A program made the position numbers and the translations under genes. From assembly GCA_963798955.1 (NCBI GenBank), contig CAWCVO010000002.1, positions 157,599 to 221,598 on the forward strand: 64,000 nt of DNA. Reading direction: 5' to 3'. The notes under the pieces are model-generated. The model was not told the origin of the DNA, did no database searches, and was given only the letters and a program-made list of their open reading frames with translations. Origin of the DNA: an uncultured Chloroflexia bacterium. Its GTDB lineage: Bacteria; Chloroflexota; Limnocylindria; Limnocylindrales; CSP1-4. Below, in pieces: positions 3,327 to 52,917 of the stretch. Each line of letters opens with the position of its first letter. Position 1 is the stretch's first letter.

Positions 3327-4544
3327 CTAGCGAATCTGCTGCTCGACCAGCGGAGCGATCACATCGACGTTGTTCTTGTCGACGAAGCCACCACCGGTAT
3401 TGATGAACAGGCCACTGAAGCCGTAGGTGTGAGTCAGGCAGAGCTGTTCGACGGCCTCGAAGCCCTGCAGGTACTGCTGCTGGTCGATGACCAGGCTGAC
3501 GTACCCGTCCTTGATGCCCTGGATCGTCGCGGGCGAGAGGTCGAAGCCTGCCGCGTAGACGCTACCGGGATCCATGTTGGCCGCCTGCATGTAGGTCGGG
3601 ATGGTGGATGTCAGGTTGCCGTGGTCGATGAAGATCGCCTTCAGGTCGGGATTGGCCGAGGCCATGCCGGTGAAGGTCGGAACGCCCGCCGACGGGTCGG
3701 CGTTTGTCGCGTCGTCGATCTCGAGATAGACCACGTTCATCCCCGCCGCGGTAAGCGCGTCGGTGATGCCCTTGGTGCGCTCACCACGACCGGGCTGCGC
3801 TGCGAGGCCCCACACGAACACCTTGTCGCCCGCCTGCAGGTTGCCGCGCTTGATCGCCTCGTTGGCCAGCGCCGCGCCGGCGTCGTGCAGGACGGCACCC
3901 ACGTAGCCCATGCCCGCACTGGCGTACTTGGCTTCCGCAGTGGGCAGCTCGGTGTTCATGACCGTGACCAGGATGCCCTGGCTTTCGGCCTGATCGATAA
4001 GCGGATCGAAAGCATCGTCACCGGGGTGACCCATGACCGCGATGCCATCAGGATGGGTGGCCATGGCCTCCTGGAACTGGCTGATCATCTTGGCCGGATC
4101 CCAGTCGGACCACTGGTAGGTCACGGTTGGGCCGAAGGCCGCCTCGGCCGCCTTGGCACCGTTGTAGACGACCGTCTCGAAGCCACCGCCCTGGGTTCCA
4201 CCGGGGAAGAACACGATGTTCATGCCCGAGCAGAAATTGGCACCCTGTGGGCTGCTACCGGCTGAAGAGGACGTCTCCACCGCGCTTGGCACGGTGGTCG
4301 GCGCGTTCTCGGTCGGGGTGGCCTGCGTCGTGGCGTTTGCGGTTGGATTGGCCGCCGTCGGCGACGGCGTTGGTGAGGTCGACGAGCATGCACCGAGTGG
4401 CAGCACGATCGCCACCAGGAGCGCCAGCGGCGCCCATCGCGAGCGCGCCCGGGTGCTCCCAAAGGATCCCATGGTCATGACAACGACTCCTTTGCCCTTG
4501 CGGGCGACGCGCGTCCAATTGCCGGGCGCGTTCGGCCCGATCAT
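3327..4544 (-). CDS. sugar ABC transporter substrate-binding lipoprotein
   Basis: Signal peptide with lipobox (LPLGACSS), a Thr/Pro/Ser-rich linker, then a periplasmic-binding-protein fold. The true start is probably an internal ATG (MTMGSFG…). Confidence 0.8.
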   Translation of the reverse strand: MIGPNAPGNWTRVARKGKGVVVMTMGSFGSTRARSRWAPLALLVAIVLPLGACSSTSPTPSPTAANPTANATTQATPTENAPTTVPSAVETSSSAGSSPQGANFCSGMNIVFFPGGTQGGGFETVVYNGAKAAEAAFGPTVTYQWSDWDPAKMISQFQEAMATHPDGIAVMGHPGDDAFDPLIDQAESQGILVTVMNTELPTAEAKYASAGMGYVGAVLHDAGAALANEAIKRGNLQAGDKVFVWGLAAQPGRGERTKGITDALTAAGMNVVYLEIDDATNADPSAGVPTFTGMASANPDLKAIFIDHGNLTSTIPTYMQAANMDPGSVYAAGFDLSPATIQGIKDGYVSLVIDQQQYLQGFEAVEQLCLTHTYGFSGLFINTGGGFVDKNNVDVIAPLVEQQIR

Positions 4545-4689
4545 GCCCGTGACGGGTTTACCGCCGTCTCCTCCTCCTGGCAGCGGAACACTGCCGAGAG
4601 TCTATGCAAACGAGTGTATGCACACGATTGCTGCAGTGTCAAGGCGTATACTCGGGCGGTCTCGCACGCCCACCTGACGAGGACCAAAG

Positions 4690-5400
4690 ATGCAGCTCGC
4701 CAATCTTCGCCAAGAGGTGCTCGCGGCGAACCAGAGGCTGGTCAGCGCCGGCCTCGTGACGCTGTCGTGGGGCAACGCCAGCGGAGTTGATCGCGCGGCG
4801 GGCGTGATGGTCATCAAGCCGAGCGGCGTGCCGTACGATCAGCTCACGCCCGACAACCTGGTGGTCGTGGCCCTCGCTGACGGCGCCGTGCTGGACGGTT
4901 CCCTGCGCCCTTCGTCGGACACGCCAACGCATCTCGTTCTCTATCGCCGGCTGCCTGCGATCGGCGGCGTCGTGCACACGCATTCGACGGTCGCCGCCGC
5001 ATGGGCACAGGCTCGCCGGCCGATTCCCTGCCTGGGGACGACCCATGCCGACCATTTCCACGGCGCCGTGCCGGTCACCCGGATGCTGACGGAAGAGGAG
5101 ATCGGTGGTGAATACGAGGCAGCGACCGGCGAGGTGATCGTCGAGGTTTTGGCGAAGCTTGGTCATGACCCACTCGCCATGCCGGCGACACTCGTCGCTG
5201 CGCACGGCCCATTCACGTGGGGGCGTTCGGCCAGCGACGCGGTGGACAACGCCATCGCCCTCGAGACGATTGCGGCGATGGCCTACCACACGCTGGCATT
5301 GGAGACGGGCGCTGAGGAGATCACCGACGCGCTGCGGCGGCGACACTTCGAACGCAAACACGGACCACACGCCTACTACGGCCAACCCAAGGTCGGGTGA
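4690..5400 (+). CDS. araD: L-ribulose-5-phosphate 4-epimerase (class II aldolase/adducin family)
   Basis: GNASGVDRAAGVMVIKPSGVPYDQL… HTHSTVAAAW… typical AraD motifs; 236 aa. Confidence 0.9.
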   Translation: MQLANLRQEVLAANQRLVSAGLVTLSWGNASGVDRAAGVMVIKPSGVPYDQLTPDNLVVVALADGAVLDGSLRPSSDTPTHLVLYRRLPAIGGVVHTHSTVAAAWAQARRPIPCLGTTHADHFHGAVPVTRMLTEEEIGGEYEAATGEVIVEVLAKLGHDPLAMPATLVAAHGPFTWGRSASDAVDNAIALETIAAMAYHTLALETGAEEITDALRRRHFERKHGPHAYYGQPKVG

Positions 5401-42727: not shown

Positions 42728-43462
42728 TCAGTGGACGTTGACGCCGATGGCCTGGCCGACGATGAACGTAACCGCCGCGGCCGCGCCGCCGAGCAGCATC
42801 TGGCGCAGCGCGCCGGGCACCACTGCCCGGCGAGTCAGGACGGCAATGCCGACACCGAGCACCGCCAGGGCGGCGAGGCTGACCAGCAGGCTGCCGGCAA
42901 AGGCTGAGCTACCCTCGAGCAACAGATAGGGAACGAGCGGCACCAGCGCGCCGAGCGTGAAGGCGACGAACGAACTGGCGCCAGCAGCCCACGGCGAGCC
43001 GATCGAGCGCTCGTCGAGGCCGACCTCCTCGAAGATGAGCAGGCGCACGGCGTGATCCGGGTCGGCGAAGACGGCGTCGGCAAAGCGTGCCGCCTCAGCA
43101 GGGTCGAAGCCACGCTCAACGTAGCTGCGGATCAGGATGCGCCGCTCCTGCTCGGGCGCCTCGCGCAGTTGCTTGCGCTGGAAGGCGATCTGAAAATCGA
43201 GCAGCTCGCGCTGGCTCTGGACGGAGATGTACTCGCCGACGCCCATGCTGAAGGCGCCTGCGAGCAACCCGGCCACGCCGGCGAGCACGATGATCCAGGT
43301 CTCCGGCGCGGCGCCGGCGACGCCCATCACCAGCGCCAGGTTGGAGACCAGCCCGTCGTTCGCGCCGAATACGACTGGCCGCAGCACGCTGTTGGCACGT
43401 GTCTCGTGCGGCGCGGTCGCTGCCGGCAGCGCCGGCCGGCCAAAGGCAAGTATCCCGGGCAT
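42728..43462 (-). CDS. VIT1/CCC1-family iron/manganese transporter (no ferritin domain)
   Basis: FGANDGLVSNLALVMGVAG… GEYISVQSQRE. Paralogue of the 22396-23571 gene. Confidence 0.8.
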   Translation of the reverse strand: MPGILAFGRPALPAATAPHETRANSVLRPVVFGANDGLVSNLALVMGVAGAAPETWIIVLAGVAGLLAGAFSMGVGEYISVQSQRELLDFQIAFQRKQLREAPEQERRILIRSYVERGFDPAEAARFADAVFADPDHAVRLLIFEEVGLDERSIGSPWAAGASSFVAFTLGALVPLVPYLLLEGSSAFAGSLLVSLAALAVLGVGIAVLTRRAVVPGALRQMLLGGAAAAVTFIVGQAIGVNVH

Positions 43463-43547: not shown

Positions 43548-45482
43548 TCAGCCGGCGGAGCTCAGGTCGTACAGGCGACCCCCGACCTCGGTGACCAGGG
43601 TGCCGTGCTCGGTGACCCAGGCCGCCAGGTCAGTACTGCCGCCGCCCAGGCTGCGCAAGCCGCCCGGCCCAGCGAAGCCACCCGGGCCGCCAAAACCGCC
43701 ATCCGACAGCAGGAAGTAGCGCAGCTGGCCGCTGGCCACGTACTGCTTTAGCTGATCCACCGTCAGGGCGTTGTCGGATCCGTTGAAGCCGCCCACGGCC
43801 ATGACCGCATCACCCGTCGCGAGCTGGATCGGTGCCGCCTCGTTCGAGGAGGCCACGGCGACCAGCCAGGTCGCGTCGCCCTTGTTGGCTTCCAGGTAGG
43901 CGATCAGCTGATCGTCGGCCTGTCCACGGCCGCGCGCGAAAGGGGCACCCCCCGGGACGCCACCGGGACCGCCGCGCAAGCCGGCGTTCGTCGCCGGGCC
44001 AGGCTGCGGATCGCCAGCCGAATAGGCCGTGTTCATCGTCGCCGCGGCGTAGGCAGCGGGCCCGGCGAGCATCGCCACCAGGCCGAGCGTTGCCGCCGCT
44101 ACGGCCAGCCGGGGCGTGACGCCTGGCAGCAGCAGGCCCGCGTCGGCGATCGCCGCCGCGAGGAGCACGAGCGGGATCAGCCACGGCGCGAAGTCGGGCG
44201 TCCGGGCAAGCATGACCGCGGCGAGCAGCGCGGTGGCGGTCAGCGCGCCGGCCATGGTCAGCGTCGCGGCCATGCCCGCCGTGCCACCGGCGCGCCGCAG
44301 CTTCCACAACTCGCCGGCGCCGGCGCCGACGAGGGCACCGATTGCGGGCGCCAATACGACCGCGTAGTAGCTGTGGACGATGCCGCCCATGAACGAGAAG
44401 ACCAGGCCGGTAACGAGAAGCCAGCCACCCCACATCAGGAACGCGGCGCGGCGCAGGTCGGTACGGGGCGCTCGCGCGCGGACCACGAGGCCCACGCCGA
44501 GGGCGATCAGCGCCGCCGGTAGCAGCCAGGCCACCTGGCCACCGAACTCTGAATTGAACAGGCGCAGCAGCCCCGGATCGCCCGAGAAACCGGCGCCTGG
44601 TCCACCGCCACCGCCCGCTGCGCCCGGGCGACCATCGAGTCCGAAGAAGCCGAAGATCCGCTGCAGCCCGTCATAGCCGAACACCAGCTCGAGTGCCGAG
44701 TTGGTCGTGCTGCCACCGATGAACGGCCGCGCAGCGGCGGGAGTGAGCTCGACCGCGGCGATCCAAGCGAAGCTGCTGACGAGGACCGTGGCCAGCGCCG
44801 CCAGCAGGTGCGCCACGCGTCGTGCGACGCCTCCGGGCGCGGCGACGAAGTAGGTCAGCGCAAACGCGGGCAGGACGAGATATGCCTGCAGGAACTTGGT
44901 GTTGAAGGCGAGCCCGACCAGCAACGCCGCGCCCATGACCCAGCGCAGTCGGCCTTCCTCGAGCCCACGCATGAAGCAGTACGCCGAAGCCACCAGCAGC
45001 AGCGTGAGCAGCGCGTCGGGATTGTTGTAGCGAAAGATCAGCACCGCCGCCGGAGTCAATGCGGCGACGGTCGCGGCGATGGTCGCGGCGAGCGTCCCGA
45101 AGTAGCGCCGCACGGCAATGAACAGCAGCACGACCGTCGCGACACCGGCCACGGCCTGCGGCAACAGGACGCTCCACGACGAGAGGCCGAACACCCGCAC
45201 CGACAGGCCCATGAGCATGGTCGAGAGCGGCGGCTTGTCGACGGTGATGAAGTTCGCCGGGTCGAGCGATCCGAAGAACCACGCCGTCCAATCCAGGCTG
45301 GCCGCCTGGGCGGCCATCGAGTAGTAGGCGTTGGCGTAGCCGCTGACGGTCAGGTTGAACAGGTACACGAAGGCTGCCAGGGCGCCAACGGCGGGTAGCG
45401 CGATGGCCTTGATCAGCGAGCGCGCCGAAACCGCCGAGCTTTCGCGCACAGCGCGATTTGCCGCTGCGACGCGGTCGAGCAT
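43548..45482 (-). CDS. GT39/ArnT-like polytopic membrane glycosyltransferase with C-terminal soluble domain
   Basis: About 12 predicted TM helices with PMT/ArnT-like N-terminal loops (…DKPPLSTMLMGLSVRVFG…), Gly-rich linkers and a C-terminal domain. The ATG at 45482 was chosen to avoid overlap with the divergent gene. Confidence 0.6.
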   Translation of the reverse strand: MLDRVAAANRAVRESSAVSARSLIKAIALPAVGALAAFVYLFNLTVSGYANAYYSMAAQAASLDWTAWFFGSLDPANFITVDKPPLSTMLMGLSVRVFGLSSWSVLLPQAVAGVATVVLLFIAVRRYFGTLAATIAATVAALTPAAVLIFRYNNPDALLTLLLVASAYCFMRGLEEGRLRWVMGAALLVGLAFNTKFLQAYLVLPAFALTYFVAAPGGVARRVAHLLAALATVLVSSFAWIAAVELTPAAARPFIGGSTTNSALELVFGYDGLQRIFGFFGLDGRPGAAGGGGGPGAGFSGDPGLLRLFNSEFGGQVAWLLPAALIALGVGLVVRARAPRTDLRRAAFLMWGGWLLVTGLVFSFMGGIVHSYYAVVLAPAIGALVGAGAGELWKLRRAGGTAGMAATLTMAGALTATALLAAVMLARTPDFAPWLIPLVLLAAAIADAGLLLPGVTPRLAVAAATLGLVAMLAGPAAYAAATMNTAYSAGDPQPGPATNAGLRGGPGGVPGGAPFARGRGQADDQLIAYLEANKGDATWLVAVASSNEAAPIQLATGDAVMAVGGFNGSDNALTVDQLKQYVASGQLRYFLLSDGGFGGPGGFAGPGGLRSLGGGSTDLAAWVTEHGTLVTEVGGRLYDLSSAG

Positions 45483-45584
45483 GGCCGGCGTATCCACGCC
45501 CTCGACTCTCGCCGGCGCGCATGTGAGGGTCCCGCGCAGTAGCTGTGAGGTCGATGTGGATGTGGCGCTGCTAGCCTCGCGCAG

Positions 45585-46694
45585 ATGCTGCCTCAACCCG
45601 TCGCTCCTCGGCTGCCCGCCGGCATCGACAGCCCGGCGCTGGTCATCGACGTTGGCATCGTCCAACGCAACGCGCGGCGGATGGCTGGCGCGGTGAGTGG
45701 GCGCGGCGTGGCTCTCAGGCCACATGTCAAGACGCACAAGAGCGTGGCCATTGCCCAAATGCAGCTCGAGGCCGGCTCGACGGGTATCACCGTCGGCACG
45801 CTGGGCGAGGCGGAGGTGATGGCCGAAGGCGGTATCGCCGACATCTTCGTGGCGTACCCCGTCTGGGCGGATGCGGCCAAGGCCAGGCGGCTGCGGGCGC
45901 TGCACGAGCGGTCCGAGCTGGCCCTGAGCGTCGGGCTCGATTCGGTGGCCGGCGTCCAGTCACTGGCCGCTGCCGTGGCGGGCACCGCGCGACCGCTGGC
46001 CGTGTTGATCGAACTCGATTCCGGCCAGCACCGCACCGGCGTCGATCCGGCGCGCGCCGTCGAGATCGCTCGCGCCGCACAGACCGCCGGGCTGGCCGTG
46101 CGCGGCCTGTTCACGCATGGTGGCCACGCCTACGGCGGCCTCGATGCCGGAGCAGGCGCGGCGCACGATGAGGTGAGCGCCCTTGCTGCGGGACGTGAGG
46201 CGCTCCGCGCCGCGGGAATCGACGTGCAGCTACTCAGCGCCGGTTCGTCGCCGACCGCGTTGCGCTCGGCAAGCGCACCGGTAACCGAAGTGCGACCCGG
46301 CACTTACGTCGTCGGCGATCGCCAGCAGGTGGCGCTCGGCGCCAGTCCACCCGACGGCGTGGCGATCGCCGTCGCGGCGACCGTGGTGAGCGACGGCTCC
46401 GACCGGGTCGTGACCAACGCCGGCGCCAAGACGCTGACCAAGGACGTGCCGCCGTATCTTGCCGGCTACGGCTGCCTGCCCCGGTACCCCGATGGCGTAA
46501 TCGAACGCGTATCCGACTACCACGGCGTGATCGTCTTCCCCGCCGGCAGTGCCCGGCCGCAGCTGGGCGAAGTGGTCGCGGTGGTGCCCAACCATGCCTG
46601 TCCGGTGATCGACCTGTTCGACACGTTCTTGGCCACGCGCGACGGCGAGCTGGTCGGGGTTTGGCCGGTCGACGCGCGGGGCCGCTCCGGCTAG
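45585..46694 (+). CDS. alanine-racemase-fold PLP enzyme (D-threonine aldolase / D-serine deaminase DSD1-like)
   Basis: RPHVKTHKS PLP-lysine motif at the N-terminus and a C-terminal D-serine-dehydratase-like domain. Confidence 0.8.
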   Translation: MLPQPVAPRLPAGIDSPALVIDVGIVQRNARRMAGAVSGRGVALRPHVKTHKSVAIAQMQLEAGSTGITVGTLGEAEVMAEGGIADIFVAYPVWADAAKARRLRALHERSELALSVGLDSVAGVQSLAAAVAGTARPLAVLIELDSGQHRTGVDPARAVEIARAAQTAGLAVRGLFTHGGHAYGGLDAGAGAAHDEVSALAAGREALRAAGIDVQLLSAGSSPTALRSASAPVTEVRPGTYVVGDRQQVALGASPPDGVAIAVAATVVSDGSDRVVTNAGAKTLTKDVPPYLAGYGCLPRYPDGVIERVSDYHGVIVFPAGSARPQLGEVVAVVPNHACPVIDLFDTFLATRDGELVGVWPVDARGRSG

Positions 46695-46696
46695 CG

Positions 46697-47992
46697 CTAG
46701 CTGACGAAGGATGTCGCGACGAGAACGAGCGACATGACCACGAGGATCACGGTCACCAGCCAACCCAGGGTCAGGTTGATGCGCCCGCTCGCCAGCTCGC
46801 CCATCAAGCGCCGATCACCGGCGAGGAGCATGACGAAGACGAGGATGATGGGCAGCAGCAGCCCGTTGAGGACCTGCGCGCTGAACATGACCTGGATGAG
46901 CGGCAGGCCGGGGATGAGCATGAACAAGGCGGCGAAGCCGATGAAGAAGGCCAGCAGGCCGTAGAAGGCGGGCGCCTCGCGCCAGCGCCAGTCGACGCCG
47001 AGCTCCCAGCCGAAGGCTTCGCACGCGGTGTACGCGCTGGCCAGGGGAACCACGCCCAGGCCGAGCAGCGACGCCGCCAGGATGCCCACTGCAAACACCG
47101 CCGAGGCGACGTTACCCGCCAGCGGTCCTAGGGCGTTGGCGGCGTCGGCGGCGCTGGTGATGTCGGTCTGGCCGGCGGCCCACAGGGTCGCCGCGCAGGC
47201 AACCAGGATGAACGCCGCGATGACGTTGGTGATGAACACACCGATGAGGACGTCCAGCCGCTCGGCGGCCAGGTCTTCCGAGCGCAATCGCTTGTCGACC
47301 ACGTAGGCCTGGATGAAAGACTGCCCCCAGGGGGTGATCGTCGTGCCCACGGTGCCCACGACAGCCAGCATGTACACGCCGTCGAAGCTGCCGTGCGGGA
47401 TGACCAGTGAATTGAGCGCCTGGCCCCAATCCGGCCGGGCCAGGATGGCCGACACGATGTAGGCACCCGATACGATCACGCCGATGCCCACGAAGGCGTA
47501 CTGCACGCGGTTGAAGCTGCCCCGGCCGATGAGCGTGATGACCGCGATCGCGGCCAGCAGCGCGCTGAGCGGAACCGGCACGTTGAACAGCGACAGGGCG
47601 GCGCTGATGCCGGCGAACTCGGACACCGTCGAACCCAGGTTGGCAATGATCATGGTCAGCGCCGCAAACGCCGCCCAGCGGACCCCGAAGCGCTCGCGGA
47701 TCAGGCCCGTCAAACCCTGGCCGGTGGCAAGGCCGATCCGGGCACCGATCTCCTGGGTGACGAACAACGCGATCTGCGTCGCGAGGAGGACCCACAGCAG
47801 CTCGTAACCGAAGCGCGCACCCGCCAGCGAGTAGGTCGTGATGCCGCCCGCGTCGTTGTCGGCGAAGCCGCTGACGATGCCCGGCCCGAGCACGGCGAGC
47901 ACCGCGGCGAAGCGTGTGCGCCGGCCCAGGTGGCGGCGGATCGCGGGCGCCAGCGCCGCGGCAGGCGTCGGCGGCCTGGTCGAGTCGGTCAC
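46697..47992 (-). CDS. mntH: NRAMP-family divalent metal (Mn2+/Fe2+) transporter
   Basis: GPGIVSGFADNDAGGITTYSLAGARFGYELLWV matches the Nramp TM1 consensus; 11 predicted TM helices. Confidence 0.85.
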   Translation of the reverse strand: MTDSTRPPTPAAALAPAIRRHLGRRTRFAAVLAVLGPGIVSGFADNDAGGITTYSLAGARFGYELLWVLLATQIALFVTQEIGARIGLATGQGLTGLIRERFGVRWAAFAALTMIIANLGSTVSEFAGISAALSLFNVPVPLSALLAAIAVITLIGRGSFNRVQYAFVGIGVIVSGAYIVSAILARPDWGQALNSLVIPHGSFDGVYMLAVVGTVGTTITPWGQSFIQAYVVDKRLRSEDLAAERLDVLIGVFITNVIAAFILVACAATLWAAGQTDITSAADAANALGPLAGNVASAVFAVGILAASLLGLGVVPLASAYTACEAFGWELGVDWRWREAPAFYGLLAFFIGFAALFMLIPGLPLIQVMFSAQVLNGLLLPIILVFVMLLAGDRRLMGELASGRINLTLGWLVTVILVVMSLVLVATSFVS

Positions 47993-48001
47993 GGCGGGGC
48001 G

Positions 48002-49339
48002 TCAGCGCGCATTGCGCGCGAACAGGCGCGGCAGGCGCTTCTTCCAGGCGGTCGGCAGGATTGCGTCCATCGCGTCGTCGACGGTCACGATCCCTTCGAG
48101 CTTGCCGTCGTCATCGACAACCGGCACGGCGAGCAGGTTGTAGCGCGCCACCACCGCGGCCACGTCATCCTGGTTGGAAAGCACGCCCACGGCAACCGGC
48201 TCCTTGATCATCACCTGCGCGATCTTCGTGTCCGGAGGGGCGACGATCAGGTCGCGCAACGAGAGCACGCCCACCAGGCGCCCGTCGTCGTCGACGACGT
48301 AGACGTAGTAGATCGTCTCCGCGTCGGGCTCCAGTTCGCGCAGGCGATCGATCGCCTGGGCCGCGGTGAGCGTCGCGGGAATGGCGATGAACTCGGTGGT
48401 CATGATCGCGCCGGCCGACTCCTCCGGATAGCTCAACAGCTCCTTGACTTCCTCGGCCTCGGTCTTCTGCATCAGGGCGAGGATCTCCTCGCGCGCCTGA
48501 GCGGACAGGTCGGCGACCAGGTCGGCTGCGTCGTCGGGACTCATCTCCTCGAGGATGTCGGCGGCGCGCTCGGGCAGCAGGTCTTCGAGCACCTCGACCT
48601 GCGTGTCGGGCTCCATCTCCTCCATGGCATCGGCGACGGCCTCGTCATCGAGCGAGGCGAGGATGCCGGCACGGTCCTTGGGCGTCAGCTGGTCGATGAT
48701 CGAGGCGAGGTCGGCCGGATGCAGCTCGGCCAGGCCGGCGTGCGGCACGCGCAGCTTGACCGACGCGATGGAGCTCTCGAGCGGATCGACGTCCTCCCAG
48801 TCGATATAGCGCTCCGGCACGCGCCGGCCCACGTTGCGGGCGAGTATCTGGAACGGGCCCTCGATGCCCAGCCGGCGCATCAGCCCGGCGGCACCAACGT
48901 CCACCGCGACGAGGCGCAGCGCGCCCTCGACGATGTCGAGTGACAGGTCGTTGACGCGCACGATCCGGCGCCCGTCGATGTCGACGATCTGCTTGTCCAT
49001 CAGGTCCTGCTTCAGCAGGATCTCGTTGGGGCGCTGGCGGAACTTGCCGATATCGATCGTCCGCGTGCGGATGCGCGCTCCTTCGGCGTCGAGCGACGCG
49101 ACCGACGACCAGGGCAGGAAGATCTTGCGTCCGTCCGTGGAAATGACCAGGCCGGTGACCGGCGGGTAGCGCTCACCGACCGCGACGATCAGGTCGGCGA
49201 CCTTACCGATCGGCTCCCCGTTCTGGTCACGAACGGGCTTGCCGATGGCCTGACTCAGGTACAGCATTTGCCACCTCGGCGGGCGGTACGCCCCGGCCGA
49301 CGTGGCGGTCCCGGACTTCGAGTCCGAGTGCCCGGGCAA
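48002..49339 (-). CDS. soluble PRC-barrel / MgtE-N / tandem-CBS protein (MgtE cytoplasmic sensor module without a pore domain)
   Basis: Two PRC-barrel-like segments, an MgtE_N acidic helical domain (EVLEDLLPERAADILEEMSPDDAADLV) and two CBS motifs. There are no TM helices. It ends 9 nt before the NRAMP gene. Confidence 0.75.
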   Translation of the reverse strand: MPGHSDSKSGTATSAGAYRPPRWQMLYLSQAIGKPVRDQNGEPIGKVADLIVAVGERYPPVTGLVISTDGRKIFLPWSSVASLDAEGARIRTRTIDIGKFRQRPNEILLKQDLMDKQIVDIDGRRIVRVNDLSLDIVEGALRLVAVDVGAAGLMRRLGIEGPFQILARNVGRRVPERYIDWEDVDPLESSIASVKLRVPHAGLAELHPADLASIIDQLTPKDRAGILASLDDEAVADAMEEMEPDTQVEVLEDLLPERAADILEEMSPDDAADLVADLSAQAREEILALMQKTEAEEVKELLSYPEESAGAIMTTEFIAIPATLTAAQAIDRLRELEPDAETIYYVYVVDDDGRLVGVLSLRDLIVAPPDTKIAQVMIKEPVAVGVLSNQDDVAAVVARYNLLAVPVVDDDGKLEGIVTVDDAMDAILPTAWKKRLPRLFARNAR

Positions 49340-49540
49340 CGTCCCGGGCAGACCGCTCAGCGGATGAGGCGGACCGTAGATGTGGTCACGACGCCCGAAG
49401 CGCCGTGGGTTCTGGGTCCGGTATCCACGAAGGAAGCGGTTCCTCCAAAGTGCGTGCTACGCGCCGAGCGATCAGGACCGCGGGGCCCCAACCGAGCGGC
49501 GGCGCACATCTTAGCGCGCGGACTGCTGGGCGACACGAAG

Positions 49541-49567
49541 GAGCGCGCCGCTTTATGCGGCGCGCTC
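49541..49567 (-). terminator. perfect 11-bp stem / 5-nt loop hairpin downstream of the Ala-rich protein gene (no U-tract)
   Basis: GAGCGCGCCGC-TTTAT-GCGGCGCGCTC read directly from the sequence. Confidence 0.45.
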
Positions 49568-49581
49568 AAACTTGATCAACG

Positions 49582-50214
49582 TCAGTGCGATGCGCCGACG
49601 GCCGACTTGGCGACCACCTTGACACCGCTGATGGTGCCCTCGAGGGCCTTGCGCACGCGCGTTCCGGCGGCTTCGCCGATGTCGCTCGCAGCATCGATCG
49701 CGCCCACCGCAGCGGCGCTGGCCGCCTGTTCGGCGCTGATGCTGGTTCCCTTGGCGACCTCGATGGCACCTTCGACGGCGCCCACCGCAGCAGTCGTGAT
49801 GTCGGCGCCCACCGCCGATGCCTCACTTACGGCACTGCGACTTGCCTGGCCGATGGCCTCGACCGTCGCCACGCCGGCGTCCGATGTGCCGCGCACGGCG
49901 CCAATGACACCCGCGCGCGCTGCGTTGCCAATCGAGGCAGCGGCGCTCCCGGCTGATGAGGCGGCCGTGGTGACGGATTGGGCAGCCGTCTGGGCGGTCA
50001 GGCCCAGCACGTCGCCGGTAGCGAGGATGGTGCCCTTGACCGCGCCCATGGCGAGATCGCCGGCTGCGGCGCCGGTGGAACCGATCTCCTTGATCGTCTT
50101 CTGTACGGCCGACGAGAGCGTGCCGACGGTCGCCTCGGTTATCTCGCCAGTGCCCTTGATCGTGCCGATGATGCTGTCGCGCACGCGGCGCCCGACGTCC
50201 TGTTCGATAGGCAT
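49582..50214 (-). CDS. hypothetical Ala/Gly/Thr-rich repetitive protein
   Basis: 211 aa of degenerate G(A/T)(I/V)xGTxxxA-type repeats. AGGAGG with a 5-nt spacer before the ATG at 50214. Confidence 0.5.
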   Translation of the reverse strand: MPIEQDVGRRVRDSIIGTIKGTGEITEATVGTLSSAVQKTIKEIGSTGAAAGDLAMGAVKGTILATGDVLGLTAQTAAQSVTTAASSAGSAAASIGNAARAGVIGAVRGTSDAGVATVEAIGQASRSAVSEASAVGADITTAAVGAVEGAIEVAKGTSISAEQAASAAAVGAIDAASDIGEAAGTRVRKALEGTISGVKVVAKSAVGASH

Positions 50215-50337
50215 ACGTTCCTCCTGCGGTGGCGTTGAACCCCCAGTGGGCAAACCCACCTTTCACTGTAACTACCGTGACAACCGGAAGGTCGGAGGGC
50301 CGCGGCAAGCGCTCCGGAATCCACTGTCGTCAGTGTT

Positions 50338-51531
50338 TCAGTCGGGCTCCAAATCCCCGGCCGCAGGCGCGGCTGACGGTTCGCCGCTGCCGTGCGCGGC
50401 GGCCTCGCCCGACGCAAACCAGCCGCGCAGGCTGCCGCGCCACAGAGCTCGTTCATGGAACTTCCCGGTCGGGTTGATGCCGTCCAGACCGCCGGCCGTG
50501 ACCAGCGTCTCGAGCAACGGTGCCAGTTGCGACCCGTACACGTGCATGCACGGCTCGGGGCGCACGCCGGGCCACGAGTAGCAGGACACGACGGTCCGCC
50601 GTTCGCCGGTTGGAATTTCGGGCGGCAGGCTGTCCCAGGCGGGGTCGTCGGGTGCGAACTCCCATTGGTCGAGGTTACCCTGCGGGATGCCCTCGACGCC
50701 GCGAACCACCGGGGGCTCGGCGTCGAGCAGGTACGGGTCCACGGCCAGGTCGCAGATCACTGCGTGCTGCGGCAGCAGCGCGAGAAAGGCGTTCGGGATG
50801 ATGGGCTGTGTGGGATCGCGTCGAGCGGTGGCATCGACGAGCACGTCGGTCATCAGCAAGCGTGCCTTCAGATACTCCGGATCGCTCGTCAGGTTGCGGC
50901 CGGCGGTCACCACCTCGACCCCCGGCAACCCGGTCCGCGAATAGGCCTCGTTGCGGGCGTCGTCGCCGTACTTGGTCGCGAACTCGACCGCGTGTGTGCC
51001 TACGCGCCCGGCGCCCATGATCAATACCTTGACCGTCGAGTGGCGGGGGCCGCCGAGCTGTGGCCAGGTCCGCTCCAGCGCTGCGAAAGCAGCCGAGATT
51101 CCGTTCCAGGCAACGCTGCGCAGGTTCTCGACCAGTCGGCGCCCGTCATCGTTGCGGATGAGGTCGAGACTGATCGCGTCGATCCCCTTGTCGGCGAGCA
51201 TCCGGACCCGCGCCGGGCGGGTGGCGAAGTGGAGCATGGACACAAGCACGGCGCCCTTGCGCAGCCGATCGTACTTGCCGGCCGGCGCCCGGAGCACGAC
51301 CACGACGTCCTGCTTGTAGCAGTCGCCCTCGTCGGAGACCACGAGGTCCTGGGATAGGGCGCTGTAATCGGTGTCGTGGTAGCCCATGGCCGAGCCGATG
51401 CCGCTTTCCACGTGCACCTCGGCGCCACTCGCCAGGAGCAGGCCAACGAGTGGCGGCAGGAAGTCGCGCCGCTCGTTCGGCTCGCGATGCATCCGCGGGA
51501 ATCCAACGGTCAGCCGGCGGCCGCCCGCCAT
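50338..51531 (-). CDS. alanine dehydrogenase/PNT-domain NAD(P) oxidoreductase (saccharopine dehydrogenase / N5-(carboxyethyl)ornithine synthase-like)
   Basis: VLIMGAGRVGTHAVEFA Rossmann motif in an AlaDH/PNT-type architecture. GAGGAGG ribosome-binding site. The ORF-track N-terminal extension is rejected because it overlaps the tRNA. Confidence 0.75.
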   Translation of the reverse strand: MAGGRRLTVGFPRMHREPNERRDFLPPLVGLLLASGAEVHVESGIGSAMGYHDTDYSALSQDLVVSDEGDCYKQDVVVVLRAPAGKYDRLRKGAVLVSMLHFATRPARVRMLADKGIDAISLDLIRNDDGRRLVENLRSVAWNGISAAFAALERTWPQLGGPRHSTVKVLIMGAGRVGTHAVEFATKYGDDARNEAYSRTGLPGVEVVTAGRNLTSDPEYLKARLLMTDVLVDATARRDPTQPIIPNAFLALLPQHAVICDLAVDPYLLDAEPPVVRGVEGIPQGNLDQWEFAPDDPAWDSLPPEIPTGERRTVVSCYSWPGVRPEPCMHVYGSQLAPLLETLVTAGGLDGINPTGKFHERALWRGSLRGWFASGEAAAHGSGEPSAAPAAGDLEPD

Positions 51532-51618
51532 CACCACCTCCTCACTCAGGCCTCGCGGACGCGCGCACCTGGTCACCTCTTGGATCGGCCGCACGATAGC
51601 GGTCCACCCAAAGGGAGA

Positions 51619-51694
51619 TGGAGCGGGAGACGGGATTCGAACCCGCGACATCTTGCTTGGGAAGCAAGCACTCTGCCAACTGAGTTACTCCCGC
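51619..51694 (-). tRNA. tRNA-Gly (anticodon CCC), CCA encoded
   Basis: The reverse complement GCGGGAGTAACTCAGTTGGCAGAGTGCTTGCTTCCCAAGCAAGATGTCGCGGGTTCGAATCCCGTCTCCCGCTCCA folds as a cloverleaf: 7-bp acceptor stem, anticodon stem CTTGC/GCAAG with loop TTCCCAA, and T-loop TTCGAAT. Confidence 0.9.
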
Positions 51695-51756
51695 TCAGCA
51701 GGCCGATTCTAGCGCCGGGGAGCAGTGCCACCTGCGGAACTAGACTGACCCGCGGG

Positions 51757-52917
51757 ATGCCTCGTACGAGCTCGCATACGGCCGATCGGTCGTCTCCGCC
51801 GGCAGCGCAGCCGACGGCAGGTGCAACTCTGCCCGCAGCGGCAGATGCCCTCGAGCACCGCCTCGTCCACATCTGGGAGAAAACTCTGGCGCGGCGTCCC
51901 ATTGGCGTCGACGACAACTTCTTTGCACTGAACGGGAATTCGCTCAAGGCGGTGCGACTGTGTGACCGAGTCTGGCGAGAGACGGGTCATCGGGTACCGC
52001 CCGCGATCCTCCTGGAGAGTCCCACAATCGCGACCTTCGCGGTGCGGCTGCGCCAACCCGACGCGACGCGTTCCGGGCTCATCGCCGTTCGAACCTCGGG
52101 AACGAAGCGCCCTTTGTTCGTCGCCCCGGGAGCCGGGCCGCGCGCCCTGTATATGCGCAACCTGGCCGAACACCTTGGCGCCGAACAGCCGCTCTACCTT
52201 CTGCAGGAGCCCCCCGGCGCTGCCCCGAGCGGAGCCGACCGGAGCGTCGAAGGCCTCGCGCAACGCTTCATCGTGGGCATGCGCCGCGTCCAGCCTCGCG
52301 GACCGTACGACGTGGTGGGCATCTCATTTGGCGGCCTGCTCGCCTACGAGGTCGCCCGGCAGCTCGTCGCCGGCGGCGAACAGGTCGGACTGCTCGGCCT
52401 GCTGGACACCCGCCACCCCGCATATTCCCGCCGCCGGCCAAGCGTTGCCCCAGGCGCCTTCGCTCGCCGCTTGGCCAACCAGGTCGTAATCGTGCGCCGC
52501 GTGGGGCGGCGGCGTGGTGGCCGGTATCTGCGCAATCGCGTTCGGATAGGTTGGAGTCGTTTCCTAGAGGGCTTGCGCGAAGGTTTCGCGTCCCGCTTAC
52601 CGGCGGACCTGGCGTCATTCATTCGCGACGGCACTCTGGAGTGGGAGCGCGCGTGGCAGGCTGCTGACGCTCAAGCGTCGGCACGCTACCGGCCGCTGCC
52701 CTACCCCGGCCGTCTCACATTTTTGTGGGCAGAGCACAGTCCCACGCCGGCCGATCGGAGTGCCTGGGCGGAGCTGGCCGCCGGGGGATTCGATGCGCGG
52801 CCAGTGCCGGGCGGCCACTTCACGCTGCTCGTCGAGCCCCTCGCCGGCATTACCGCCAGCATCCTCGCAAACGTCCTCGACGCAGCCCGGGCGGCGACCG
52901 GCTCGATGGCGAAGTGA
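51757..52917 (+). CDS. stand-alone peptidyl-carrier-protein plus thioesterase didomain protein (PCP-TE)
   Basis: PCP core DDNFFALNGNSLKAV (phosphopantetheine serine). The TE domain has GISFGG (GxSxG) and a C-terminal catalytic His region. It is paralogous to the C-terminus of the 57530-60319 synthetase. Confidence 0.75.
   Translation: MPRTSSHTADRSSPPAAQPTAGATLPAAADALEHRLVHIWEKTLARRPIGVDDNFFALNGNSLKAVRLCDRVWRETGHRVPPAILLESPTIATFAVRLRQPDATRSGLIAVRTSGTKRPLFVAPGAGPRALYMRNLAEHLGAEQPLYLLQEPPGAAPSGADRSVEGLAQRFIVGMRRVQPRGPYDVVGISFGGLLAYEVARQLVAGGEQVGLLGLLDTRHPAYSRRRPSVAPGAFARRLANQVVIVRRVGRRRGGRYLRNRVRIGWSRFLEGLREGFASRLPADLASFIRDGTLEWERAWQAADAQASARYRPLPYPGRLTFLWAEHSPTPADRSAWAELAAGGFDARPVPGGHFTLLVEPLAGITASILANVLDAARAATGSMAK

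Follow-up and report, generated by a model that had tools for sequence, protein, structure and literature searches.

A pore-less MgtE-type protein encoded directly ahead of an NRMT-type Nramp transporter in a Chloroflexota genome, behind a leader with a conserved upstream open reading frame

The window analysed here is a stretch of 64,000 nucleotides (nt) from an uncultured Chloroflexia bacterium (contig CAWCVO010000002.1), and our subject within it is a pair of genes in which a protein built from the cytoplasmic domains of the Mg2+ channel MgtE, lacking the pore of that channel (hereafter the partner), is encoded immediately upstream of a transporter of the Nramp-related Mg2+ transporter (NRMT) clade. 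An earlier note, made from the sequence alone, had proposed that the first protein could act in trans on the second or be co-regulated with it. The two open reading frames (ORFs) are co-oriented, lie in the same frame and are separated by a 9-nt gap:

48002..49267, minus strand: pore-less MgtE-type (partner) gene, 421 amino acids (aa) plus stop; the maximal ORF reaches TTG 49339
46697..47992, minus strand: NRMT-type Nramp transporter gene, 431 aa, GTG start at 47992

The maximal partner ORF runs from TTG 49339 to a clean stop at 48002 on the minus strand and would give the 445-aa protein of the earlier note. This ORF exists, but the likely true product is the 421-aa protein starting very probably at ATG 49267, given the Shine-Dalgarno (SD) sequence GAGGTGG that precedes this codon, the 421-aa product reported by gene callers and the lengths of the homologues (410-424 aa). 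That 421-aa product (P0001) occurs with 100% identity on an independent 1.88-Mb metagenome contig (L001) with the same neighbours. Once this start is adopted, the untranslated stretch up to the upstream stop measures 314 nt (49268-49581), not 240 nt as first given. The nearest relatives of the partner, 73-82% identical, come from Candidatus Limnocylindria/Limnocylindrales bins (Chloroflexota), an origin consistent with the G+C content of the window (62-71%, mean approximately 68%).

On the 445-aa ORF, Pfam recognizes a PRC domain at residues 25-92, MgtE_N at 206-307 and two CBS domains at 310-428. In the numbering of the 421-aa protein, which is used from here on, the partner is laid out as follows:

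49064..49267, minus strand: PRC-barrel 1, residues 1-68 (Pfam PF05239, E 1e-12; AlphaFold strands with a predicted local distance difference test, pLDDT, above 90)
48788..49015, minus strand: second PRC-like barrel plus two helices, residues ~85-160 (weak YlmC/YmxH match, homologue, model)
48419..48724, minus strand: MgtE_N helical domain, residues 182-283 (Pfam PF03448, E 5e-27; alignment to 2yvy)
48056..48412, minus strand: tandem CBS pair, residues 286-404 (PF00571 twice; Foldseek to 2yvy)
48005..48058, minus strand: basic C-terminal tail LPTAWKKRLPRLFARNAR, isoelectric point 12, at the site of the acidic plug helix of MgtE

The view that this is an MgtE sensor module without a pore is upheld by three approaches that agree. 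Pfam gives no match to PF01769, the five-helix MgtE pore, in the partner; the NCBIfam mgtE model TIGR00400 is covered from positions 26 to 252 of 450, with a score of 202 below the cut-off of 232.75, and from the confinement of the match to this part of the model the protein terminates where the pore would begin; and no membrane helix is apparent from Kyte-Doolittle hydropathy, the maximal 19-residue mean being 1.53 with 0 windows above 1.6, against the many of the Nramp protein. The two PRC-barrel-like segments noted previously are also borne out, the first by Pfam and the second by a weak YlmC/YmxH match (residues 111-146), by AlphaFold strands (93-123) and by a homologue (P0242) in which Pfam places a PRC domain at residues 83-170, the same place as the second segment. 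This second unit holds residues that are invariant in the family alignment (D91, D96, R104, D107, D123, and W157). In an AlphaFold model computed from a 38-sequence alignment (mean pLDDT 88), residues 1-66 form a PRC barrel and residues ~82-156 a further barrel-like unit that includes two helices; after a disordered linker at 163-174 come MgtE_N as a helical domain (176-278), the two CBS domains (285-403), and a short tail. Its last 240 aa were superposed by Foldseek on 2yvy, the Mg2+-bound cytosolic domain of MgtE from Thermus thermophilus (channel structures 2YVX/2YVY), with a TM-score of 0.85, a root-mean-square deviation of 2.0 Å and 40% identity, and none of the solved structures spans the PRC part together with the MgtE_N-CBS module. 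Compared with MgtE, the partner has approximately 180 extra N-terminal aa, which are the two PRC barrels, and instead of the five-helix pore and the plug helix with the Mg2 and Mg3 sites it carries the basic tail, whose consensus in the family is LPxxWKKRLPRxF. Proteins of this pore-less family are widely labelled "magnesium transporter" or "MgtE" in databases (P0005, P0098, P0270, and others).

The Mg2+-site residues of T. thermophilus MgtE (TtMgtE), as assigned by Maruyama et al. (2018; PMC5882242), were transferred to the partner through a HMMER alignment to 2yvy. By this transfer the Mg4, Mg6, and Mg7 sites and half of Mg5 are kept: D91/D247 of Mg4 correspond to D245/D398 of the partner, D95 of Mg6 to D249, E59 of Mg7 to D213, and D250 of Mg5 to D401. 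Among 38 diverse family members, D95 is conserved in all 38, D247 in 37, and D91 in 35, and an acidic residue (D or E) is found at the position of E59 in 34 and of D250 in 35.

The downstream ORF is a complete Nramp gene, as the earlier note had it, given its coordinates and a full-length match to Pfam Nramp PF01566 (E 5.4e-85, profile positions 1-355 of 357). The description "MntH-like", on the other hand, has to be abandoned: the best match in the Protein Data Bank is EleNRMT of Eggerthella lenta (7QIA; 340 bits, E 2e-100), compared with 104 bits and approximately 1e-28 for the best MntH, and the MntH model NF001923 scores 143, far under its cut-off of 430. The binding-site signature is also that of the NRMT clade, of which this gene is a member, with transport itself predicted from sequence. 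D47/G50, E125, T217, and Q373 of the window protein are the equivalents of D55/G58 (transmembrane helix 1, TM1), E133 (TM3), T224 (TM6), and Q379 (TM10) of EleNRMT, and neither protein has the histidines of the proton pathway. TM1 reads D47-A-G-G50, with Gly in place of the Asn of DPGN; in TM6, Thr (the Mg2+ ligand, T217 in the window protein) takes the place of Ala, and the motif is GTTITPW, with no Met and no His after TM6a. EleNRMT is a H+-uncoupled Mg2+/Mn2+ transporter driven by the membrane potential, in which these same residues, together with a TM6 without Met, fit the site to hydrated Mg2+, and T224 is needed for Mg2+ (Ramanadane et al. 2022, eLife; PMC8806188). At the position of the canonical Met, EleNRMT has Ala and the window protein Thr; in partner-linked NRMTs, Ala is no more frequent than Thr at this position, GTTITPW being the commonest motif (22, followed by GTTIAPW with 18). 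The window gene could easily be mislabelled MntH in annotation.

The association of these two genes has been reported before. Shin et al. (2014, PLoS Genet; PMC4072509) described a fragment corresponding to the MgtE cytoplasmic domain adjoining most NrmT genes, showed that Mg2+ uptake can be complemented by these genes, and put forward a trans-acting feedback role or a chaperone function for the MgtE-like ORF. The ORF of those operons is likewise a pore-less homologue placed immediately upstream of an NrmT-clade Nramp, with an M-box riboswitch before many of them, in contrast to the window copy, which has none. Both the pairing and the idea of regulation in trans are thus already published, and the locus in the window is a further example of that operon type. 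Shin et al. make no mention of PRC barrels (0 mentions), a basic C-terminal motif, membrane-anchored variants or an upstream ORF (uORF), and these features appear to be undescribed in any paper retrieved by our literature search. The later papers on NRMT and Slc11 proteins found in that search do not discuss the upstream partner, which was neither included nor discussed in the structural study of EleNRMT, though close orthologues have one.

The partner family is large, with 15,058 representatives at E<=1e-3, of which 1,767 reach E<=1e-30. The search for the same pair in other genomes, which had been suggested earlier, took one genome per species and was based on the best 80 of approximately 600 matches, covering about 10 phyla, and on the 74 loci among them that extend at least 1.3 kb past the partner stop. 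The pair is conserved: in 68 of these 74 species-level loci (92%) the partner gene is directly followed, on its own strand, by an NRMT-type Nramp gene, within 400 nt in 67 of them, and in many loci the stop of the partner and the start of the Nramp gene overlap or abut. It is spread over Chloroflexota, Dormibacterota, Acidobacteriota, Firmicutes, Nitrospirota, delta-proteobacteria, one archaeal bin, and Actinomycetota (Eggerthellaceae, other Coriobacteriia, and Thermoleophilia). In three Eggerthellaceae loci the Nramp protein is 89, 82, and 75% identical to the crystallized EleNRMT, each behind a partner gene, from which we conclude that EleNRMT itself comes from such a pair. Some loci depart from the common arrangement: an Anaerolineae bin has tandem Nramp genes after one partner (L049, 6292-7575 and 7646-8944), the gene order is reversed in L021, and one pair lies on a contig of a bin labelled Methanobacteriaceae archaeon (L020, 5001-7499), which could reflect horizontal transfer or a binning error. 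The gene pair behind the "domain-swapped" arrangement of the earlier note is real, but the adjective is loose: the transporter is not MntH-like, and a sensor for Mg2+ here accompanies a transporter that is itself of the Mg2+ type.

Relatives of the partner differ only at the C-terminal end. Among 146 representatives of at least 390 aa, hydrophobic stretches after residue 380 number none in 114, one in 8, and several in approximately 24. In Eggerthellaceae (L057 5001-6350, L067 5001-6353, and L071 2221-3582), a single hydrophobic helix (residues ~418-450) replaces the basic tail, and homologues of 615-650 aa (L072 56-1921, L073 4938-6848, P0191, and P0250) end in a multi-helix C-terminus of approximately 200 aa. 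No Pfam family matches this last domain in any of the four, nor do they show significant similarity to C-termini positive for PF01769 (phmmer full-sequence E 0.03-4). The multi-helix partners L072 and L073, from Coriobacteriales, still precede NRMT genes. A recognizable PF01769 domain is present in P0149, which is followed by an NRMT-type gene, and in P0139, which is not. At L203 (4001-7259; GCA_020354555.1) and L204, a PRC-MgtE_N-CBS protein with such a PF01769 domain (598 aa) precedes an NRMT-type Nramp (SGNDAGG). The Asp of the TM5 motif (pore Mg1 site) is missing in most long forms, as judged by eye only. Since the single-helix and multi-helix relatives still adjoin NRMT genes, the family can be placed at the membrane, and the series formed by a pore-like domain, a degenerate anchor, a single helix, and a basic tail would suggest a cytoplasmic module that acts next to NRMT on the membrane.

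The leader of the operon was compared over 330 nt upstream of the partner gene in the window and 12 Limnocylindria loci, and contains the following elements:

49541..49567, minus strand: GC-rich hairpin GAGCGCGCCGC-ATAAA-GCGGCGCGCTC, terminator-like, with no T-run; read from the sequence and present in the minimum free energy (MFE) fold
49508..49536, minus strand: promoter-like element, -10 TAAGAT at 49508-49513 and weak -35 GTGTCG at 49531-49536, from the leader alignment
49432..49446, minus strand: SD GGAGG of the uORF, able to pair with CUUCC just ahead of the GTG start; a hairpin in folds
49357..49428, minus strand: uORF of 23 codons plus stop, MDTGPRTHGASGVVTTSTVRLIR, GTG start, conserved in relatives
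49262..49337, minus strand: structured 3' part of the leader, covered by covariance model R1
49310-49328, minus strand: variable covarying hairpin, part of the R1 module
49302-49306, minus strand: anti-SD GCCAC, part of the R1 module
49278-49298, minus strand: conserved hairpin GGCCGGGG.../...CCGCCCGCC, part of the R1 module
49270-49277, minus strand: main SD GAGGTGGC, part of the R1 module

The hairpin at 49541-49567 begins 15 nt past the stop (49582) of the upstream 210/225-aa gene. The promoter-like element of the window aligns with TTGACC-N17-TACACT, kept in the 12 Limnocylindria relatives; a consensus scan of the leader for sigma-70 promoters and terminators called neither this element nor the hairpin, and the promoter emerged only from the comparative alignment. 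Further downstream, GAGG is invariant in the 13 aligned leaders, an invariant GTGGA follows approximately 10 nt on, and the 3' region is conserved.

The earlier note had raised the possibility of a metal riboswitch in this leader. The claim does not survive a permissive Rfam scan of 49200-50400, in which neither the M-box (RF00380) nor the yybP-ykoY family (RF00080) was found at E<=10, the best match being an unrelated one at E 2.3, and a riboswitch in the window leader was dropped. With the same tool, an M-box of 133-163 bits was found before the pair in 10 of 13 loci scanned from Firmicutes, Thermoleophilia, and Clostridia, where it occupies the same position (ykoK, RF00380) ahead of the partner and NRMT genes in Firmicutes and Thermoleophilia; in the Pelosinus locus (L078), two tandem M-box aptamers (4278-4455 and 4596-4767) precede the operon. 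No M-box was found in any of the Limnocylindria relatives tested or in the Acidobacteriota, Eggerthella, and archaeal-bin loci scanned, and the yybP-ykoY Mn2+ riboswitch was not found in the scanned relatives either. The proposed co-regulation is accordingly Mg2+-linked in other phyla, through the M-box before the pair, but not by this means in the window.

In the window leader, it is the conserved uORF, the translation of which is predicted, that appears to stand in for the riboswitch. Of 18 loci with a partner identical to at least 60%, 16 have a uORF (21-33 codons; L015 has the variant start MDAGS), and it was also found in 19 metagenome contigs. In Limnocylindria the peptide starts with M-D/E-T/D/S/N-G-P and often ends with V-R-P/L-x-x. 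Each of the seven loci examined from Firmicutes (Desulfosporosinus, Pelosinus, Sporomusa, Lucifera, and one metagenome) likewise has an M-D/G-S-G-P ORF of 23-36 codons behind the SD GGAGGTGG, between the M-box terminator and the partner, its stop being 12-14 nt ahead of the partner start or overlapping it, and the remainder of the peptide after the start motif is not conserved. The uORF is recorded for the window, L002-L019, L068, L078, L081, and L205-L208. In 1.56 Mb of fetched DNA, 20 of the 22 occurrences of the pattern "SD + start + [DEG][STDNA]GP" fall no more than 260 nt before a partner gene, an enrichment of approximately 700-fold, and a scan of metagenomes with the uORF pattern returned at least 120 stretches, of which 19 are real, all before partner genes, and the others are chance occurrences in coding DNA. 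No second class of genes was found behind the pattern among the metagenome stretches listed. As with the barrels and the tail, the uORF appears to be undescribed in the papers of our literature search.

The RNA structure of the leader was drawn by hand and then refined with a covariance model and re-alignment, replacing the result of RNAalifold on a MAFFT alignment of the whole leader, in which the variable hairpins were misaligned and the structure was poor. In the Limnocylindria module, the main AUG is paired with the stretch that comes directly after the stop of the uORF; a hairpin of variable sequence follows, after which the anti-SD CCACC pairs with GGUGG of the main SD, enclosing the conserved hairpin. 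Model R1 has a single match in the window (49262-49337, 29.2 bits, E 1.5e-4) and 33 further copies, all before partner genes and none in other phyla. Over 34 distinct sequences in the model-fitted alignment, 84.7% of the cells are paired, compared with approximately 40% in slid controls, and double-change cells number 32, compared with 14.1±2.7 in shuffles; in an unfitted alignment 81.4% are paired and the covariation is weaker.

Other genes surround the operon. The gene immediately upstream (49582-50259, minus strand; 210-225 aa) encodes an Ala/Gly/Thr-rich, repetitive protein that matches no family in Pfam or NCBIfam, and a strong hairpin comes after it. At 1-4 kb from the operon lie genes, both on the minus strand, for a VIT1-family (Fe/Mn) transporter (42728-43462) and a PMT_2/YkcB_C glycosyltransferase-like membrane protein (43548-45905), and on contig L001 a gene for a cNMP-binding protein follows. 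A tRNA-Gly(CCC) gene is found at 51619-51694 on the minus strand, with the ORF 51376-52917 reading through it on the plus strand; given this overlap, the beginning of that ORF probably does not encode a genuine N-terminus.

Taken as a whole, we read the locus as an NRMT Mg2+-uptake operon in which the partner serves as a Mg2+-sensing brake, preceded by a leader with a promoter, a uORF, and a structure that pairs with the main ribosome-binding site, and we give this reading a probability of roughly 55%. Because EleNRMT is uncoupled and driven by the membrane potential, a transporter of this type calls for a brake such as the one built in cis into MgtE and CorA. We infer that the partner would bind cytoplasmic Mg2+, perhaps with ATP, at the acidic sites of the interface between the N and CBS domains, that it would then clamp shut in the manner of the MgtE cytosolic domain, and that, operating from the surface of the membrane by way of the conserved basic tail and/or the PRC barrels, it would hold back the ungated, potential-driven NRMT when Mg2+ suffices. 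Expression would be set by the conserved leader, through the promoter, the uORF, and the structure that pairs with the main SD and start codon, and translation of the uORF would probably report on Mg2+ or on the state of the ribosome, by analogy with MgtL.

Several observations weigh against this reading. As regards the Mg2+ sites, D226 of TtMgtE is Asn in the partner (N377), as in 21 of the 38 family members, 11 having Asp, and the plug-helix sites Mg2 and Mg3 (E258 and D259) are missing, with the conserved basic tail instead. In the one test published, in which the accessory gene of A. capsulatum was co-expressed in B. subtilis, rescue by its transporter was unchanged, and the main activity of that NrmT-clade transporter was the import of Mn2+ (Shin et al. 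2014; PMC4072509). The presence of T220 in the window Nramp where EleNRMT has Ala227 makes its selectivity less certain. The partner is found without a nearby Nramp in 6 of the 74 loci (L022, L032, L042, L050, L060, and L065), and the locus of Desulfosporosinus acidiphilus SJ4 (L205; CP003639.1, 2131-3802) contains a partner, an M-box, and a uORF with no Nramp, so that the partner can exist on its own. With regard to the leader, M-D-T-G-P is poorer in D/E/P than the MEPDP of MgtL; the main SD is paired in the MFE structure of 30 of 31 leaders, but this is not above chance, since 7-89 of 100 shuffles pair as well, and such pairing alone is therefore no evidence; and when the uORF was masked in ViennaRNA, mimicking ribosomes on it, the main SD stayed unfreed, so that a simple model in which the uORF opens the SD is unsupported.

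The nearest known counterpart of the uORF is MgtL. In MgtL, the N-terminal EPDP senses Mg2+ through destabilization of the ribosome, translation being aborted at low Mg2+ and mgtA thereby controlled (bioRxiv 10.1101/2021.02.02.429294). Like MgtL of Salmonella and E. coli, the uORF is a short ORF in the leader that precedes genes for Mg2+ import, with an acidic or proline-containing, small-residue start and RNA structure after it; they differ in that there is no sequence homology, that the organisms are unrelated, that M-D/E-x-G-P has a single Pro and no more than two acidic residues (one or two) compared with MEPDPT, and that MgtL couples its motif to alternative RNA structures, whereas the window has a covarying structure for which no uORF-dependent switch was found in silico. 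A sensor of the MgtL type, with abortion of translation at low Mg2+, is for this less acidic motif a tentative, rather improbable reading. That the uORF is no sensor at all, and instead encodes a small subunit, serves to couple translation or deliver ribosomes, or acts as an RNA motif and not as a peptide, is a strong contender that falls somewhat short of an even chance. In Firmicutes, the position of the uORF stop just before or across the partner start, with the partner SD inside the uORF, resembles that of coupled genes, and the masking result is also in keeping with such a role. The T-G-P and V-R codons of the Limnocylindria uORF can pair mutually, which would suit an RNA motif; the helix between codons 3-5 and the V-R codons, however, is not backed by compensatory change and is broken by the change of GGA to GGT, which argues for selection at the peptide level. 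Selection on the peptide is also pointed to by the synonymous variation of the Gly codon, for which GGA, GGT, GGC, and GGG are all used while the peptide is kept, and a folded subunit is disfavoured because only the first five residues are kept between phyla, which would be unusual, and because the peptide is not hydrophobic.

For the partner itself, it is unlikely that it does not gate NRMT and instead responds to Mg2+ or nucleotides by regulating something else, such as a full-length MgtE encoded at another site (in mixed dimers) or, through PRC barrels as in RimM, the ribosome or RNA, or that it takes over the ion from NRMT as a Mg2+ buffer or chaperone in the cytoplasm. The loci with no Nramp and the ineffective co-expression in B. 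subtilis would fit this explanation, as would the occurrence of PRC barrels on pore-bearing relatives, which makes them not NRMT-specific, and a chaperone role was also raised by Shin et al. (2014; PMC4072509). An adjacency of 92% with translational coupling over about 10 phyla is nonetheless hard to explain without a joint function, membrane-anchored variants adjoin NRMT genes, and the sites retained are Mg2+ sites of the gating type, not features of high-capacity binding.

Quite unlikely is a system for the uptake of manganese or of mixed divalent cations, in which the MgtE-like module would sense Mn2+. Such a function would agree with the A. capsulatum protein, which has an MgtE-like gene before it and no M-box and which rescued Mn2+ and only weakly Mg2+ (PMC4072509), with the transport of Mn2+ by EleNRMT as well (PMC8806188), with T220 at the Met position and a leader devoid of an M-box, and with the VIT1-family gene 3.2 kb off. 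It is countered by the presence of T217, equivalent to the T224 that EleNRMT requires for Mg2+, and of G50 and Q373, by the fact that Thr is the commonest residue at the Met position of partner-linked NRMTs, even behind M-boxes, and by the lack of a yybP-ykoY riboswitch in the leaders scanned. Finally, the idea that the partner ORF is an artefact or remnant, be it a frameshifted or misassembled truncated MgtE, the refuter named in the earlier note, or a pseudogene, could draw on the frame disruption in one relative (L017) and on the many records in which pore-less proteins are labelled "magnesium transporter", but is refuted with near certainty by the identical protein on the independent contig, the thousands of equally long homologues (more than 100 clusters of 418-424 aa at 79-96% identity, in addition to the representatives at E<1e-30), the clean stop with an intact Nramp 9 nt on, the conserved tail motif, and the pLDDT of the model.

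Returning to the reading of an NRMT operon with a Mg2+-sensing brake, a bolder form of it, which we regard as tentative, joins all parts into an operon of three ORFs, in which the uORF would represent a new type of sensory leader peptide and the partner a detachable Mg2+-sensing gate of an SLC11 transporter, working through its basic tail. In that form, a uORF of 21-36 codons with the start M-D/E/G-x-G-P, common to Chloroflexota and two classes of Firmicutes, would work with an SD-hiding RNA in Limnocylindria and downstream of the M-box in Firmicutes.

The MgtE and CorA channels are shut by cytoplasmic Mg2+, and NRMT has no built-in gate. If the partner gates in trans, this would explain how Mg2+ overload through NRMT is avoided, and the partner would become the first known example of a regulatory subunit in the SLC11/NRAMP family. 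Regulation in trans, a question raised in 2014, is now more testable, as residues can be named for mutation (D245, D249, D398, D401, and the WKKRLPR tail) and further handles are offered by the partner from the native locus of EleNRMT and by the natural membrane-tethered variants. The uORF, in turn, may form a second, translational layer of Mg2+ sensing.

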